Part shown: positions 15,588-52,138 of the stretch, in pieces
Layout of the letters: every line of letters begins with the position of its first letter
Position numbering within the stretch: position 1 is the first letter of the stretch
Assembly: GCA_965112155.1 (NCBI GenBank)
Contig: OZ218099.1
Reading direction: 5' to 3' (one strand)
Length of the DNA stretch: 64,000 nucleotides
Origin: Podarcis liolepis
Lineage: Eukaryota
Made by a program: the position numbers and the translations under genes
Notes under the pieces: generated by a model
Databases searched by the model: none
The model's input: the letters and a program-made list of their open reading frames with translations, nothing else
Told to the model about the DNA's origin: nothing

Positions 15588-16676
15588 CCCTAGGCTCCTG
15601 CATGTGGTTCCTCCACCATCGTACCCACCCCAGCAGAAGGCCTCTACCCAAGTCAGCTAAGCCGGGGCCCTTTGAGGAAATGCTCAGGAAAGCTGATGTG
15701 TCAGATCTATTCGTTTTGTTTTAATTCGTAAAAATGTTTATATACCACTAACTTGCATAGAAAGCATCTAAGGAGTGCAAAGCAAATATAAAGTCACAAT
15801 AAATAAAAGGGGAAAAAACATGAAAGCAGAAAATGTGGGGCAATGCATTTCAGATGGAATTGGATATGCTCACTGTTTTACATAGGATGCATGTGAGGGT
15901 CTTTGCCAAGTCTAACAGTGAGGAGGATGAAGCCGCTCAGCATTTATATCTCTATAAATGCATCATCTTTGGGATACTTGGAGTGGGGGGAGAGAGAGAG
16001 AGACACCTGGCAGGAGACTGACAGCAAAACTGCTTTATTGCCAGTACGAAAGCATGACAAAGAGGACCATCCTGGCCTTGTCAACCCATTTTGCAATCCT
16101 CCTACCCCCGGAGAGGCCTTTGATGCTCAGCAATTTGTGGCAACCTTTCAAGACAGAACAGGGTGTCTCTCTAATTAAATGTGAAATCTCCCCCCATTTT
16201 GGCTGCAGCTTTAATTCATCATGTTTCGCAGCTGGTGTAATGATACTGTGCAGTGCATCTGTGATGGAATTTTCACCATTAGGAACTTCCTTTTGTATTC
16301 CAAACAAATTCGAATACCGGTGCCTTATCTGCAATAGCTGCCTTATCAGCACTCCAAAGAGGACATAGCAAAAGAATGGCATTGGTTTGGGTTGATTGGC
16401 GAGAAAGGAGAGACAATTCACTGGGAAAGGCAGATGTAGGAGGTTTCTGAACTGTCCAGTATGAGGGATGGGCGATTCCTAATAACCTTAGCCAGCAAAA
16501 AATAAATAAAAGAACCTGTAACACTGGTTTGATCATCTCCCCCTTTGGGAGACAATTTTGTGAAAACTTCACAGTGGAGACCAACATGGAAGTTGTATTG
16601 AGTTGGCATGGGTTTGATAGTCCTGTTGCCACTATGTGCTTAGCTCATCTGATTAATGATTTTTGCAGTGTTACAT

Positions 16677-16959
16677 TTTGTTGTTCTTGGTGTTTCGTCG
16701 TTTAGTCATGTCCGACTCTTCGTGACCCCATGGACCAGAGCACGCCAGGCACACCTGTCTTCCACTGCCTCCCGTAGTTTGGTCAAACTCATGCTGGTAG
16801 CTTCGAGAACAGTATCCAACCATCTCGTCCTCTGTCGTCCCCTTCTCTTTGTGCCCTCCATCTTTCCCAACATCAGGGTCTTTTCCAGGGAGTCTTCTCT
16901 TCTCATGAGGTGGCCAAAGTATTGGAGTCTCAGCTTCAGGATCTGTCCTTCCAGTGAGC
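16677..16959 (-). mobile_element. 5'-truncated RTE-BovB LINE
   Basis: Encodes SLEGQILKLRLQYFGHLMRREDSLEKTLMLGKMEGTKRRGRQRTRWLD...LVHGVTKSRT (BovB ORF C-terminus). (CAA)-like tail and perfect 12-bp TSD gcagtgttacat (16665-16676 / 16960-16971). Confidence 0.93.
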
Positions 16960-17595
16960 GCAGTGTTACATACACAATCGCAATGATACACATGAGTCAG
17001 TCATCTGAGTCTCCACTGTGTGATGATGACTGCAAGTTATTCCGCAGAGGCAATAGACTCAGTCTGCAGAAACTACCTATGAGGTGGTGTTCCTGGGTGG
17101 TACCACTTTAGACTGCAGGGAGAAGAATCACATGATTGAATGTTTCCCCTCAATTATTATTTTTTTATTACCCTGCCCAGAGAACATTAAGAGAAAAGGA
17201 GAAAGATTTTAGTTTAGTCATTCCCTCTCATGTTAGTTTTCCATCTGAAAGGATTTATTGTGAGGGAACATTCAAACATGCAAAATAGCATCCCTCTCTG
17301 CCATCACTTTCAAGAGATGGGATTGTTGAGAAGCAGTTTACAACCTCATCTACTCTTTGTTTTGGAGAAACAGGATTTCATGCCACAGAGGGATGCTCTA
17401 CTCCAGAAGTAGGCAATGTGGTACCCTCCAGATGTTGCTGGACTACAACTTTCAGCAACCCTGACCATTGGCCCTCCTGGTTGGAGCTGATGGGAATTGG
17501 AGTCCTAGATTAGAAGGGCATAGAATGGTATCTCCAACTCAAAGAACACAGACTTTAAAAAATATATATTAAGTTTTACAAAAAAAATTAACATA

Positions 17596-43870: not shown

Positions 43871-46800
43871 AACAGTAGTTCTCATCATTTTTTTTCTCTA
43901 GGCCACACTTTCAGAATAAAAATTTGCTTGCGCCACAGCAATTTTTTTATTGGTAGGAAATACATGGGGGAGGAGAGTGGGAAACAAAAGTCCTAGCAGT
44001 GCTTGGTTTTGAAAAGATACCTATCCATATTCTGTAAAAAAAATATAAATAAAAATTTGATACTCTACTATACCATGCTACACTGAAATGTTTAAATGTT
44101 TCTTTGATTGCCCTTAAATTGTCCCGCCACATTTGCCATCCTCTCCTGCCATACCACTGTGGTGTACCACACCCTTTGAGAACTACTGGTGTAAAAGAAC
44201 AACTTTTTTCCTATGTGACATCAGGCCCAAGTTGCCCTGGCAACCTCCCCCCCCACTCCCATAGGGTTACCTGTAGGGTCTTTTGCCTTGTAGATGACAT
44301 CATCTCCCTCTGCCCCTCTGTCTGGCAGGAAATGACAGGCAGAAAAAGCAAGCTCAGCCTGTCAGCTCTGATTAAAACCCAGCACCCAAGAATCTAGATG
44401 GGAAAATCTGGTACCCAGAGATCTGGGGGATCCCTTTCCCCCCACCAACCCATAACAATACATACTTAGCAGACCAGACCAGAAGAACAGAACTACAGCT
44501 ATGCAATGTCTCCAGTGCTACATCCCACCATTGAACTAAATTGCCTGGCAGTTACTTTGATAACCTTTTACACATCACTTAGGAAATGAAACAGCAGGTA
44601 CCCCCACCCCACTCCACTATTTATTTTGCACTTAGGTTTTTTTAAACCCTGCATTGGAAAGTATGCCAAGTCTCAGTGGGGTGCTAACATCAGTGACAAA
44701 TTATATGAAGCACACATGTATTTTTATGGTAGGACTTAGCATCATTTTCTGACAACAAATCTATCTAGTAAAGACTCTTGCTGGTGTTTTATCTCACGAA
44801 CAATATACAGCCCCCAGATTTGTCTTTTATCGTATTAAGTCATTACATTTGAATATTTTTTGGAATTCATTTAAAATGTTTAAATACTGGTGGCCATCAA
44901 GTGCAACGTACAATGGCAATGCAGAATACAATAGAGAATTGTACAATACAAAATATGATAACATTAAACTTTTGCATTCTTTGCGAATCAAAACCCACAT
45001 CCACTTGATATTGCATTGATACTATATTTGCAGTTGTATTAGACTGCAGAAACCTAATTAAGCCACCACTGTCATATTTATGATTTGAACTAATAGGAAA
45101 AAGGACTGTGTAATATTTTTAATACATAGGTATAATTAACATTAATAGGGCTCAATTTGTTAAATATTGCATCATCCTGAAGCAGCAGACCAGTATGTCT
45201 TGTTTATATAGCAGCCAGTGAAACATGAAGAATAAAAAAAACTATGCATCACAGCAATTCACTGGGTAAAATTTAGACTTCCTAGAAATATTGTTTAAAC
45301 GATGTCTGGTCTTGAACTCTAGTAGAATGTTAGTCCAGAGCCAAACAGGAAACCGAAAATGTATTACAGAATGAAGTTCAATGTTGGAAGATTCAGAAGA
45401 GACAAAAGAAAGTGCTTCTTCACACAGCATATAGCTAACCTATGGAATTTGTACCCAACAATGAAGTGATGGCCACCAACTAGGGTGGCTTTAAAAGAAG
45501 GAGACTGGCCGTGATGGCTCTGTTCTGTCTCCACTGTCATAGGCTGTGCTGGCTGAGGCTCACGGAGCTGCAGTACAAAACAGCTAGAAGGCAAAAGCTT
45601 AGAGAAGGATGCCCTAGCCATTTTAGTACAGAATGAATAAGGGGAAACATGCAAGCAATATTCTAGCTATTGGCTATCTAGCTATTGGGCCCAGAGGCTA
45701 ATGGTTGATGTGACATCAAAGACAAGTGATTGCATTTCCAATGCCTTAAAAAAACAAAAAACCCTAAAAGCAGCCATAGCATCCTCCAACCCGTTTGGAT
45801 CAGAACCATGGTGCTTGCAGGATTTAACCCTACCACCTTCTTTCAGAGCACTGATGCAAATAGTCAATGTCAGCAAACAGTTGCTATTAGCCATGAAAGC
45901 GGGAAAAATACGGACCTAATGAGTTTGTATTGCACCTATATTACCCTCTCCATATCCCTCTATGGCAAATAGCAACTTTGTGGGTGTGTGGCTTGAATTG
46001 GGGCTGCCGCAGCATGGGGAAGAATTAAGAACGCCTTCATCCACATGGTCCTGATCCAAACTGGAGCAGTCATGGCTTCTTTCAGCCAACTGGCCAGCCA
46101 ATCAAGATGCTGGGAAGAAAGGAGTGTAACCTCCTAGAAGCCCTTCTTCAGCAGCCAAGAGGAGGACTGTATGGCACCAATCATAGTGGAGGATTGGCAG
46201 ACGGAAGGGAGTGATGAACCTCTTTCATGCCCCCGCCCTTGAATTAATCTTCAGCAACAATTTTGAGTGGAAAAACAGTCCAGGGGGAAGGGAAGCGTTA
46301 AGCATCTCCTACTCATGCATCAGTCTTCTCCTATGATTGGTGCTAGGCTTTTGTTCCTTTGGCATTTATAGCACAGCTTTTGTCACAGAGCTATATGCCT
46401 TGCACCAAACTAAATGCTACCCATAGGCTATACATTGTGGTCTTTCATTTATCGGACTCCCTCCTTTCATGACTATCTTGGAAAGACAGTAAAAAGAGGC
46501 AGTTTACCGAGATCCTGATGAGCTAGCACAAATCAGTGAGGGTATGTTTTTAGCTTTGTAGGTAACATGCATTTATTACAGTTATAGAAAAGTGTATTTT
46601 TCATTATTTCTATTGGAACTGTTCTTTGGAGGGGGGGGGGAAGCCAACTGCCTCTCAACAAGGAATCGTTTCAGCACTTAATTGTTGATGAATGTGAGGA
46701 ATGTCCAAATAAACTACAGGCTCCAGTGGGGAAAGGTTATTCAAGGTTCCCAGCTTTTTCTTTTGCTTCCAACATTCTACTATAAAGTCAGAAAAGTCCC

Positions 46801-48099
46801 CAGTCCAGTTCAAAACTCTCTAGGGAAGGTAAATGCCAAAGCCTCCAGCCTGTCTATAATTCTGAAACCAAAACTCGGTTACTTGGCTGTCCAAAAGAAA
46901 GAAGCTTCTGAATATTTCTCAGCCTGAGTTTCTTCAGGGAATTTCACAGCAACATCTCACACCACAACCACCAACACAGTATAAACATCCTAGTGTCCAA
47001 CAAAAATCGCAGTTGTGGGATAAAAGAAGGCACTAAGGGTCAAGCTACATGTGACTGACAGCTGTGTGTAACTGTTGCCTTGTCTGCAGCTGTGGGAGGT
47101 TGTAGTCTTGAGCAATGGGTGGTGGGGAGGTGCTTAACCCTTTTTCTTGAGTGATCTGCCTGTTCTCAGTTCTCAGTTGCTCCAGCCATGAACAGTTTTT
47201 ATCTCAGCAAGAAGGTAGCAGTAGTCTTGAAGGAAGCAGCACTGTGTTGGCCTGGGCAGAATTGCAGTCCACTCTAAATGCACACTTAGATGGATTAAAC
47301 AAGCTGATATGTACAACATTCCACTAACCGCCCTTCTTGGTTTTTGTCATCAGGAGGTGAAATATTGCCTTTTGTGATCCAGAGAGTAAAGAGGGTGGGA
47401 TTTTCCTACTTTTGACTAGCAGGGATGCCTCTATTCGCATGCTCACTGGCTGTGGTACCTAACTCCCAGCCTGAAATCCATTCCTGTCTAGAGCTTGGCT
47501 CAAACTAGCTCATTCTGGCATGTAAGTGGTATGTAAACAAATGAATAAACAACCATCAATAACAACGATCTGTTCCTATGAAACAGAATTGATCCAGGAC
47601 GTTTAAACATGTCAGTTTTTCTGTGGAATTGCTGGTTGAGCAGCACCAACCCTACCATCAAACATCTGCCTGGAAGCACCCTATCTCTTGGTTTTAGGTA
47701 CTTTGCAGGATAGAAAATAATGTGCGCTGCCATCCTATATTATTTATAGACGTTGCTGACAAGACCGTCAACGCAAAACACAGCAGCGTGGTCGGCCCGC
47801 TTTTCTCCCACGATGTCCTTAACATCAGGGACAGAAGTTCAACAGGCGCAGCTTCGCTTTCTCCCGCTGGCCAGGAGCCACTGCTACCCTCCCTGAGGCT
47901 GAAGCATATATGGAGACACCGGGCACGAAGAGGGTCCCGCTCTGCACCACCGCAGCGCCTGCGCTTCTAGCAAAGCACCTGCCAGGTGTAGCGCGCGACC
48001 TCCGCCCGTTCTTTCCCCCCGCCGCGCGCGCCTAGGCTTAAAACGTGACTTTCTCCAGCCGCGCGCGCCGAACTCGCTCACCTCCCGGAAGTCCCGCCT

Positions 48100-48265
48100 T
48101 AGCTCCGCGGAAGTGAAGCGGAACCCGGAGGGCGGCCGGGTGGCAATCATGCCGGGCAAGATGGCGGCGCCCACGGAACCGTGCTGAGGGGAACGAAGGG
48201 CAGGGCGGGCACCGAGTCCCGCTCTCTGCCCTTCCTACGTCGCGCACCGCCTCGGGCTCCCGCAG
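48100..48265 (+). other. COX10: COX10 exon 1 (5' end approximate; contains no in-frame ATG)
   Basis: Lies in the CpG island after the ETS/NRF1 sites. Donor CCCGCAG|gtacca at 48265/48266 is phase 1 in the frame that continues into exon 2, like mammalian exon 1 (..RLLT G|). Confidence 0.65.
48149..48187 (+). promoter_or_regulatory. uORF MPGKMAAPTEPC* in the COX10 5' leader
   Basis: ATGs at 48149 and 48161 (AAGATGG, strong Kozak context) share a frame that ends at TGA 48185-48187, out of frame with the COX10 CDS. Confidence 0.65.
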
Positions 48266-48504
48266 GTACCAAAGGGAAGTTGGGAGGAAAAACCTCGGGG
48301 AGTTTTTGCCCCTTCCGTCGGGGCGGGAGAAGAAGGGAGGGGAGGGGAGGGACTCTTAGGTGCCAAAATAAGGCGAGAAGGGGCAGCGCCTTTTCGGAAG
48401 GTGCCAGAGAAGGAATGGCTCTCTCCTCCGGGCTTCTCTGCCTGTCGCCTCTCCTCTTTACACGGCTGCTTCTGCTCCCGTGTGTTCGGAAGGGCGACTC
48501 TAGG

Positions 48505-48672
48505 TCATAGGAACCTGCCTTGCCCCGTGCCAGACTGTGGCACTGCTTACTAAATGTTATGTGAGGTGCCTGTCAGTGGCTTTCCAGCATTTCAGGCAAG
48601 GCCTTCCCTTATCCCTACCTCGGCATCTGAACCTGGGACCTTCTACGTGCAAAGCAGAGGCACTGCCCGCTG
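48505..48672 (-). mobile_element. Degraded SINE at the 3' edge of the CpG island
   Basis: cataggaacctgcctt..ccagac.. and tgaacctgggaccttctacgtgcaaagcaga..actgccc (B-box region). Confidence 0.55.
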
Positions 48673-48888
48673 AACAGAAGCGGAGTGATCGTAAAAGAAA
48701 CCGAGCCGAAAGAGTGAGCAGCTAGTCCAAAGCAGTCTTCTCCCAACAATGCTATAGATATGATTGCTTTTCCTAAATGGAAAGGGTTTGCTTTAGGGGT
48801 TCCAAGGCATGTATGCTTGATTACTGAGCTGAAGCCGGTGTTGTTGGCTACAGCTTCTGTTTCATGGTACAAGCCTGTGGTAACTTCT

Positions 48889-49016
48889 NNNNNNNNNNNN
48901 NNNNNNNNNNNNNNNNNNNNNNNNNNNNNNNNNNNNNNNNNNNNNNNNNNNNNNNNNNNNNNNNNNNNNNNNNNNNNNNNNNNNNNNNNNNNNNNNNNNN
49001 NNNNNNNNNNNNNNNN
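48889..49016. other. Assembly gap (128 N) in COX10 intron 1
   Basis: Run of N; abuts an L2 3'-end fragment. Confidence 0.99.
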
Positions 49017-49049
49017 AGCAGCCCCCCATTCTCTTCTGCCGTGTTTGCT

Positions 49050-49175
49050 GACAACACCACCACCACCCCACCCGTCTGGCTGACTTGCCCCATCCACTCT
49101 GGGTGGCTTCTACCACGTATAAAAACATAATGAAACGTTAAACATTAAAAACTTCCCAATACAGGGCTGCCTCCA
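49050..49175 (-). mobile_element. L2 3' end fragment next to the gap
   Basis: cccgtctggctgacttgccccatccactctgggtggcttc...aaacttcccaatacagggctgcc matches the 8065 family. Confidence 0.65.
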
Positions 49176-51112
49176 GTAAAAAGTGCAACTTGCTAAAAAG
49201 CATAACTTGCTGGGGTTTTTGTTACTATAGGCAAGGTGAGAAAAATCTTTCTCTGCTTACACACTCTTCTTCAATTATTTTCCTATACTGTACTATCTTA
49301 GTTGAACAAAAATAAAAGATGGTGGCAAGGATACACAGGGAAAGAAGGTGCATTCATTTCAGTTGTATGTTTTAAGGCTTATGTTTAGTGGGAGGTGAAG
49401 ACTAAAGGGCTGTGTCTAAGACCTCAAGAAGGATTTTTGAGGGGGTTGGCAGAATGGAGAGTCACACCATCCCTTAAAGTTCTGGAAGACAGTTTAGGGT
49501 ACAAGGGGGCAATAAGACACAAAGGGTGGATAGTTTTGAGGGAGCTGAGATCCTTTGGATGGTCTGTGGTGATGGAACAACAGGTTTAAAGGTCAGTGTC
49601 AGAGATCTCTTGGGATATGAAAATGCAAGATTAGCAGGGTAAGGTCAAGGAGGATTTGAAAGAAAGATTTGTGTGGATCTGAAAGTAGATAAGACATTGG
49701 CAGTGGATGTTGTTCAGTGGTGGAGAACATCCTTTGCATTACAGAATACCCTAAATTCAGTCCCTGGCATAGTTGGTTAAACCACACTGGGAATTGTAGC
49801 TGTTTGAAAGGAAGAGGGGTAACAGCTCTCATATGATTTGACCCTGGTATAAGACAGTTTCCTATTTTCCTTAAGAAGGGGTGTTACATGGAGGTAAATG
49901 AAAATGTTGGCAGAGTTCTATGCAGAAATATGGCAGTGAAGAAAGCTTCAGGCACTTAGACTTACTAGTGTCTCTTTTTCAAGACTGTAGTTAATGTTGT
50001 GATGGGGAGAAATGAGCTTCAGTTCTCTAAGTGAATTCCCTGGTGCACTGGGAATTTGGATGCTGCACACCTTCCTTAGTGACTTTTCCCCTTTGGCCTC
50101 ACGTGTTTCTTTAAAATATGTTGATTCTTTTATATATTATCTAGACAATGTATCCCTTGCCCTTTCAGTATTTCAGTTGCTTAGCGTGACTTGCAACAAT
50201 TAAAACAAAACCATCCCCTACAATAAAAGTTTAAACAACAGCATAAAAATGGAAACAGGTTCAGCAAGTTCAGGGGTTTTGTGATGGAGAGAGAGAAAAT
50301 GTTTTACTATGTAGAAGTATTTAAGTTTTCTTTACATTCTCCTTGTTCTCTCCTTTAAATGTGTATATGACTAAAGGTTCCCCCCCCCTCTTCACCGTGG
50401 ATTTATGTTACTTTCTTTTCAACTCAAGATTTGTGTTCCTTTGAGAGAATATGCACTTTTCCTAGTTAAAATAATGTGTGTTAATAGGCATACTTTATCT
50501 GAGTAACTTGTGCAAGCATACAAAAAAGCATGTTAAATAAATGAAATTGTTTGTTCCAGACATAGAAGCTACTTTTTAGTGAGCATTCAATGGAATTGTG
50601 ATGTGTCGACTTGACAAACTGAAGCACGTACACCAGGCTCATAAACATTGCTTTAGTGTTTGCCTTTATTGTCATGAGACTTTTTACTGTGACAATTAAA
50701 AATGAAGTTTTATGGTTGTCTTATATCATAGTTGTAGTTTTTAAGATCTGTAATAAACACACACATTGCAGCTGGTGCAAAAACCAGAAATGTTCTCCTG
50801 ATGTGAATGTTCAACTCTGGTGCTATTTTAATGGGCAATACCTACTTTTAAGTAAATATTCCATTTTGTTGATGCTTGTCTAGTTATAAACAGTTTTATA
50901 GCCAATGGCAGTAGCAGGAGTGGAAAAGATTAGCTTGATCGGTTGTTTGAAAGGAAACACTGAATGACTTCCCCTTGGATTTTGCAAGGATTTTTTGTTT
51001 TATGCTTTGTTTTCATTTGCATCTTTTCCTGCTGATGAAACTGAAAATTTGTAATAGTTTTCAATCTAATTTCTATTGTAAGTAAATTCAGACTTTTCCC
51101 CCTTACTTGTAG

Positions 51113-51237
51113 GACTTTTTCCAGCACCTTCAAGAAAAAAAGCCATGCAGCAAATGCCATGCAAGTTTGCTTGCTTCTTTAGGGTCACCAAAGAAAGAGG
51201 AGTTACATTTCAACAGTTAAATTTCATCAAGCGAATG
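51113..51237 (+). CDS. COX10: COX10 exon 2 (N-terminal presequence region); first in-frame ATG at 51145
   Basis: Acceptor ccccttacttgtag|G and donor ATG|gtaagt. Reads (G)LFPAPSRKKAMQQMPCKFACFFRVTKERGVTFQQLNFIKRM, resembling recalled human COX10 ...WITFQHFSFLKRM. Phase 1 start, phase 0 end, in frame with exon 3. Confidence 0.88.
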
Positions 51238-51813
51238 GTAAGTTGGTGTAATACTGTGTAGTGCTACAAAAGGCAGTGAAAATCAAAACTGCATTCATTG
51301 TACTGTATAGATTTCTCGCATAATAGTATTCATTACTTACAAAGGGAAAACAAAGACTATTCCATGAAACTTCTTGAAGGGAAAATAAATAAATAATGTG
51401 ATTAGAGCAGTGATGTGAGGTGAAGCTTTTTCTATAAATATCTGGTGTTAGTCATACACAGAATAGACTGATTAAAATCAGTGCACTTAAATCCCCTGAT
51501 TTCATTGTGTCTACTCTTGAGTTTGCTTTAGTTGCATATCAGCAACAAAGAACTTTCCTTGTTGAAACAGCATAAACAGTTTAATGCTCAAATTAAAACT
51601 ACTCTCTAGGCCACACTAGCTCAAGAGAGGTTTTCACCTTTCTGTGTATTTGGGATAATGTGACCTCTGTATCCAAGCAATGTGATAGAAACCGCATAAT
51701 CTAAAACTTTTGAGAATCTGAATTAAATTTGTAGATACTTACATAGCTTCATAGGCCCACAGAATCTATAATAAAAAGTAGTTTATTTTATTTTTATATT
51801 GTTTTTTTTTTAG

Positions 51814-52138
51814 TATGTAACCCAGCATAGCAAAGCCCTCAGCCAGCGAGCAAAGTTGAAGTCAGAATCAACTGCACCTCCTTTCCTTGAAGGCCAGCAT
51901 TCAGGTCAGGAAAAAACGGTTATCCATGAGGTGAGATCGGTTTCACCTCTTCTGCCGCCTTTATCTGAGAAACGAGTTATTAATGAATCTGAAGCACTGA
52001 AGTCCACAGTAATCGCCGGAGGCACAGGAACTGTAGTAGGACCTGCATCCAAGGAAGAAAAACAATGGAAAGAGATGAAACTAGAGCTGGATGATTTACC
52101 AGGCATTTTAGCTCGTTTGTCCAAAATCAAACTTACAG
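51814..52138 (+). CDS. COX10: COX10 exon 3
   Basis: Poly-T acceptor ttttttttag|TAT and donor ACAG|gtaata; 325 bp. Encodes YVTQHSKALSQRAKLKSESTAPPFLE...KEEKQWKEMKLELDDLPGILARLSKIKLT, matching the COX10 motif WKEMKL..DLPGILARLSKIKLT. Confidence 0.96.

Follow-up and report, generated by a model that had tools for sequence, protein, structure and literature searches.

The window, by which we mean the whole 64,000-nucleotide stretch of the Podarcis liolepis assembly that was analyzed, contains the 5′ end of lacertid COX10 (protoheme IX farnesyltransferase or heme O synthase; UbiA family), the Lacerta agilis protein cluster including Zootoca, Podarcis, and Rhineura. When the 417-residue representative of this cluster (P0001), standing in for the window's own full protein, was used as the query, COX10 was found at a single locus in the genome as six coding stretches of 91–97% identity. 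The cyoE_ctaB domain (TIGR01473) in P0001 scores 297.9 bits, versus a curated cut-off of 210.3, and spans residues 130–402. The exon junctions agree both with RNA and with the homologue alignment. The features at the locus are as follows.

47801..48400, unstranded: CpG-island promoter of COX10, with GC of 0.60–0.69 and CpG observed/expected of 0.72–1.18 versus approximately 0.1–0.3 at 46001–47600.
48085..48114, + strand: two GGAAGT motifs in the sequence, which we take to be ETS/GABP-like.
48124..48265, + strand: exon 1, likely all 5′ leader now, with main 5′ ends inferred near 48138; joined to 51113.
48149..48187, + strand: predicted upstream open reading frame (uORF) MPGKMAAPTEPC with its stop, 12 codons from 48149 and 8 from 48161.
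48157..48168, + strand: exact TISU/YY1 element SAASATGGCGGC around ATG 48161, present once in the window and in 0 of 100 shuffles.
48223..48265, + strand: what is left of the first 15 ancestral codons, a decayed relic in which the old ATG maps near TCT 48223 or CTG 48226.
48266..51112, + strand: intron 1, GT..AG, a joint that skips 2847 nt in 6 of 6 RNA or presumed-RNA runs.
51113..51144, + strand: exon-2 leader, once coding, with an A-run (51135–51141) that differs by 1 nt and the ancestral HLQ out of frame.
51145..51147, + strand: probable start codon, in the context AAAGCC ATG C with a purine at −3; all 30 squamate species with the column have Met.
51145..51237, + strand: predicted shortened presequence, 31 residues to KRM with Tyr next in exon 3; 6 R/K, 1 acidic residue (E), and a moment of 0.50.
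51814..52138, + strand: exon 3, reached by the joint 51237–51814 in 4 of 4 runs; 98% identity to Lacerta agilis COX10.

The RNA runs come from relatives or label-matched organisms and are not provably from the assembly's individual. In them, read depth is nil at 47600–48070, four reads extend to 48124, and 12 X21 reads among the loose ends listed stop with loose letters before 48138, approximately 23 nt 5′ of ATG 48161; we infer that these stops mark the main 5′ ends of the COX10 transcript. Exon 1 ends at 48265 (CCGCAG|GTACC) and exon 2 opens at 51113 (TAG|GACTT). This junction, for which the preliminary description had proposed a check by RNA, was spanned by 7 (X23), 22 (X24), and 27 (X21) raw reads and was also present in contigs of X1, X13, and X14. 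Set against these read counts, the depths at 51135 are 12, 29, and 25, and among the joints listed only 48265 feeds exon 2, which argues against a different, ATG-bearing first exon that would supply the N-terminus, whether from intron 1's N stretch or from 45514 as in a Podarcis lilfordi model. Reads cannot map onto the N stretch, a minor variant would be compatible with the loose ends listed, and variant N-termini do occur in models P0129, P0162, P0169, and P0141; these termini, however, have nothing in common between species. The segment 45514–45600 is used as first exon by the 488-residue P. lilfordi model, and since it is frameshifted in the window relative to that model, it is probably a gene-model artefact. 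We consider another first exon very improbable.

The reading frame that passes through the donor at 48265 into exon 2 is open from TAG 48100–48102 and contains no ATG in exon 1; its first in-frame ATG is GCCATGC at 51145 in exon 2. The preliminary description had reported exactly this, and all of its coordinates hold. The leader's only ATGs, at 48149 and 48161, are both out of frame and both run to the TGA at 48185–48187. One explanation put forward earlier was that a 1-nt assembly error parts ATG 48161, with its MAAPTE.. reading, from the coding frame. The MAAP start does look like the mammalian MAAS, and at 51135, in a homopolymer of A, most runs depart from the window. DNA contigs, however, cross exon 1 with no gaps (X15, 47950–48526, depth 88, which is possibly tied to the assembly's source and so maybe not independent; X16, 47950–48645, depth 87, which carries another organism label), and no exon-1 indel is present among the indel rows listed for four RNA runs. 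In addition, TGA 48185 ends the frame of ATG 48161 under either A-run allele. The assembly-indel explanation is thereby refuted, and the missing exon-1 ATG of COX10 is confirmed as a real observation.

ATG 48161 itself lies in the TISU element, for which the consensus was taken from PMC3177215. In the available text of that source, TISU is described as a YY1-bound, strong initiator near the site at which transcription starts and resistant to leaky scanning. The element here matches the consensus exactly and would lie near the inferred 5′ end, but it differs from the known TISU in what it opens, which is the main open reading frame in the systems covered by that text and an 8-codon uORF in COX10. 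Likely the same motif can be recognized in other frames of other COX10 models, as QDGG in alligator, cordylid, and kiwi, and as RWRR in gecko and two cetaceans, all read from protein read-through rather than from DNA. QDGG and the exon-2 Met are 47 residues apart in the window, the alligator, and the cordylid alike; in the two cetacean models, the motif precedes the true MAASPH start by 24 codons. Because the motif coexists there with the ancestral start, ATG 48161 is not the displaced start, which also counts against an assembly indel. From these alignments, the TISU element appears to be older than the ATG loss and to have coexisted with the ancestral start, and a TISU-context uORF appears to be common to amniote COX10 leaders. 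In the lizard transcript, 110 spliced nt separate the uORF stop from the main ATG at 51145. A uORF-to-start spacing of 110 nt permits reinitiation.

The second explanation offered earlier was that translation starts at a near-cognate codon of exon 1 (GTG 48181, CTG 48184, or CTG 48226) and retains a basic N-terminal extension. From GTG 48181 the frame does encode 39 residues with 10 R/K and 1 E, as had been counted, and an A occupies position −3. The window's allele leaves this frame open, a relic of the ancestral frame can still be recognized, and a Gekko kuhli model has the ancestral frame open with a Lys near the old Met position. However, the frame shifts among close relatives. Six of eight runs lack one A at 51135 (in the run 51135–51141): it is absent from 10 of 12 (X23), 24 of 29 (X24), and 24 of 25 (X21) reads and from X1, X13, and X16 contigs; X15 (depth 80 at the A-run) has the window's 7-A allele, and the exon-2 piece of X14 has one gap, which among the indel rows listed is not at 51135. 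Since the open frame above the exon-2 Met needs the seventh A, it is an accident of one allele. In the 6-A allele, all three near-cognate codons are out of frame, and the in-frame candidates left are ACG 48237, in poor context, and AGG/AAG codons. GTG 48181, moreover, sits within the uORF.

The residues encoded upstream of the Met likewise vary from one squamate family to another: GTFLRYLQETA in the gecko, ECFCRAFKKKA in the cordylid, KIFVAHPRKNI in the snake, and GLFPAPSRKKA in the window, with a varanid model also having its own distinct residues. The P. lilfordi model P0129 follows the 6-A frame (RTFSSTFKKKA). Turtles, crocodilians, and birds keep LFVWHL upstream of the exon-2 column; the ancestral HLQ of LFVWHLQKRA persists in the window in another frame only, as DFFQHLQEKK. 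Conservation of frame and codons in exon 1 across squamates, which the preliminary description had suggested examining, is therefore not seen, given the 1-nt indel and the family-specific frames, where the exon 1 of other squamates is known through N-extended protein models alone and not as DNA. The upstream frame shows, at the level of sequence comparison, the pattern of a decaying leader, and we regard near-cognate initiation as very unlikely.

A start in exon 2, the remaining reading of the preliminary description, is well supported by the frame-shifting indel and by the invariance of the Met at 51145. We gathered 32 squamate species, from which Crotalus adamanteus and Protobothrops mucrosquamatus were dropped because their models have no exon-2 column; in the other 30, which comprise geckos, a cordylid, lacertids, an amphisbaenian, anguimorphs, iguanians, and snakes, the column is Met in every species and is where the chosen model begins in 28. 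As the 30 share one ancestor, they represent one event. Since automatic models are built to begin at the first in-frame Met, the independent evidence consists of the residue's invariance alone. In 132 non-squamate records the same column is V in 49, I in 26, A in 19, M in 18, and another residue in 20 (the comparison set is without amphibian and fish outgroups). Exon junctions 1/2/3 and the protein from the exon-2 column onward are alike in turtles, birds, crocodylids, and mammals, but COX10 in these groups starts in exon 1, 25 residues upstream of the column in the sauropsids and 28 in mammals, as read from an alignment set of 175 proteins from which 24 with no alignment anchor were left out. 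The shared exon-1 start indicates that this position is ancestral for amniotes. The tuatara model begins 8 residues downstream of the column. On this comparative evidence the start most likely moved to exon 2 in the squamate ancestor, and we hold a squamate-wide relocation to be highly probable. Exon 1 has probably become a 5′ leader in which the former coding frame survives as a decayed relic.

Met at the exon-2 column also occurs beside a retained exon-1 start in marsupials, horse, seal, tree shrew, and a molossid bat (P0057, P0058, P0079, P0092, P0093, and P0182), where it is a possible second start. Its presence alongside the exon-1 start in marsupials and some eutherians indicates that a fallback Met arises readily.

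The relic was compared, together with two exon-2 codons, with the starts of six proteins in all. It is identical to turtle starts at 8 of 17 positions (14 of 20,000 shuffles), to plover at 9 of 17 (5 of 20,000), and to three other proteins at 5–7 of 17 (60–269 of 20,000). A parallel is found in the alligators (P0041, P0130, and P0131): in two models of Alligator mississippiensis, Val occupies the old start and the exon-2 column is Met, and Alligator sinensis has Met at the column in a model without exon 1. In Crocodylus and Gavialis (P0132 and P0133), the old start is Met and the column is Ile. The upstream segment of Alligator is in frame and identical to that of Crocodylus at 23 of 25 positions, so that either a recent relocation or a GTG start is possible; Alligator may have lost the same exon-1 ATG independently, or it may use a GTG start.

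Using crude measures, we found the N-terminus that begins at 51145 to be basic, acid-poor, and amphipathic. Across seven squamates the retained 31 residues contain 6–8 R/K and 0–1 D/E, with a hydrophobic moment of 0.44–0.70, and the lost segments of seven outgroup proteins have a moment of 0.38–0.48; the retained squamate piece would be at least comparable to the lost segments as a presequence. By the same measures, the GTG 48181 extension (moment 0.58) is as presequence-like as the retained part, and these similar scores mean that presequence measures cannot pick the start, which is selected by the conservation data. Invariant in the 30 squamates are K7, R13, K16, T21-F22-Q23, L25, F27, and Y32. 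A hydrophobic-x-x-hydrophobic-hydrophobic motif at positions 8–12, which we assume to be a candidate TOM20 motif, is present in 28 of the 30 squamates; as 69 of the 132 other records share it, a squamate-specific gain is not claimed. The basic-basic-x-Tyr end of the predicted presequence (KRM-Y) resembles what we presume to be a site for cleavage by MPP. The catalytic domain, which starts at residue 130 of P0001, is far from the lost N-terminus.

With the gorilla protein as a proxy for human numbering, the squamate Met aligns with residue 29, and no further Met occurs in the gorilla protein before residue 59. According to the available text of PMC11011759, which cites another paper, a mutation of the human COX10 start codon was fatal in infancy. 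The one supplement file of a mouse N-terminome that was consulted has no Cox10 entry (PMC8014998).

Taken together, the observations are best explained by a start at the exon-2 ATG 51145 with exon 1 devoid of an in-frame ATG, an account in which we have high confidence. Translation from 51145 would yield a predicted 417-residue heme O synthase lacking the first 25–28 amniote residues. The squamate ancestor would have had or gained the exon-2 Met and lost the exon-1 ATG, after which the old N-terminal codons would decay as leader. Ribosomes may get to 51145 by reinitiation after the TISU-context uORF or by leakage past it, and the retained 31 basic, amphipathic residues, with their conserved basic-basic-x-Tyr end, would act as the import signal. 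Among the points that weigh against a start at 51145, a strong upstream ATG such as 48161 is expected to reduce initiation there, and the residues dispensed with correspond to human COX10 residues 1–28, which the available text of PMC4444999 describes in use as the mitochondrial targeting sequence (MTS) of an AAV-ND4 gene-therapy vector. We put forward one broader reading tentatively, judging it rather doubtful as a whole: residues 1–28 would be the dispensable half of a presequence of approximately 60 residues, and exactly that half would have been deleted in squamates; Alligator would have lost the ATG independently and fallen back on the same exon-2 codon; and an amniote-wide TISU uORF would gate COX10 translation by reinitiation and could link heme A synthesis to eIF2-alpha stress signaling.

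The closest known counterpart is AGXT/AGT in mammals, where the available text of PMC12960970 likewise describes lineage-specific loss of the upstream ATG and decay of the targeting codons through non-canonical starts, stops, and frameshifts. In AGT, however, mitochondrial targeting is lost with a shift to peroxisomes, whereas COX10 is an integral inner-membrane enzyme in which targeting is predicted to be kept through the second half of the presequence. Squamate COX10 models of 412–429 residues in RefSeq/GenBank (among them XP_032995416.1, XP_028572958.1, and XP_026557923.1), which are automatic predictions, have the same Met start. The short squamate protein is thus already annotated by RefSeq, and a description of the start shift itself was not found in print: our literature search, with most subscription journals outside its scope, yielded nothing on where squamate COX10 starts, on a uORF in COX10, or on its initiation at a non-AUG codon, and the available parts of PMC5360235 and PMC9456099 held nothing relevant to the COX10 start.

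The doubt over annotation is settled in that the short COX10 of squamates is most likely genuine rather than a broken gene or an error. The squamate start shift represents a modest evolutionary result rather than a new mechanism. Squamate COX10 amounts to an experiment of nature in which part of an essential mitochondrial presequence has been deleted, and the position of the squamate Met, at the equivalent of residue 29, leads to the prediction that residues 29–60 hold enough targeting information, a point relevant to which MTS is chosen for allotopic expression.

Elsewhere in the window, both DNA runs have approximately 25 extra bases at 50049–50057, where the assembly has either an intronic deletion allele or an error. 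Intron 1 also contains fragments of high-copy repeats at 49085–49180 and 48540–48700, with summed DNA contig depths that reach approximately 10^6 and 4 × 10^4, respectively. An open frame like the 3′ end of a LINE, which we take to be a putative RTE/BovB-type element, occupies 16674–17000 on the − strand.
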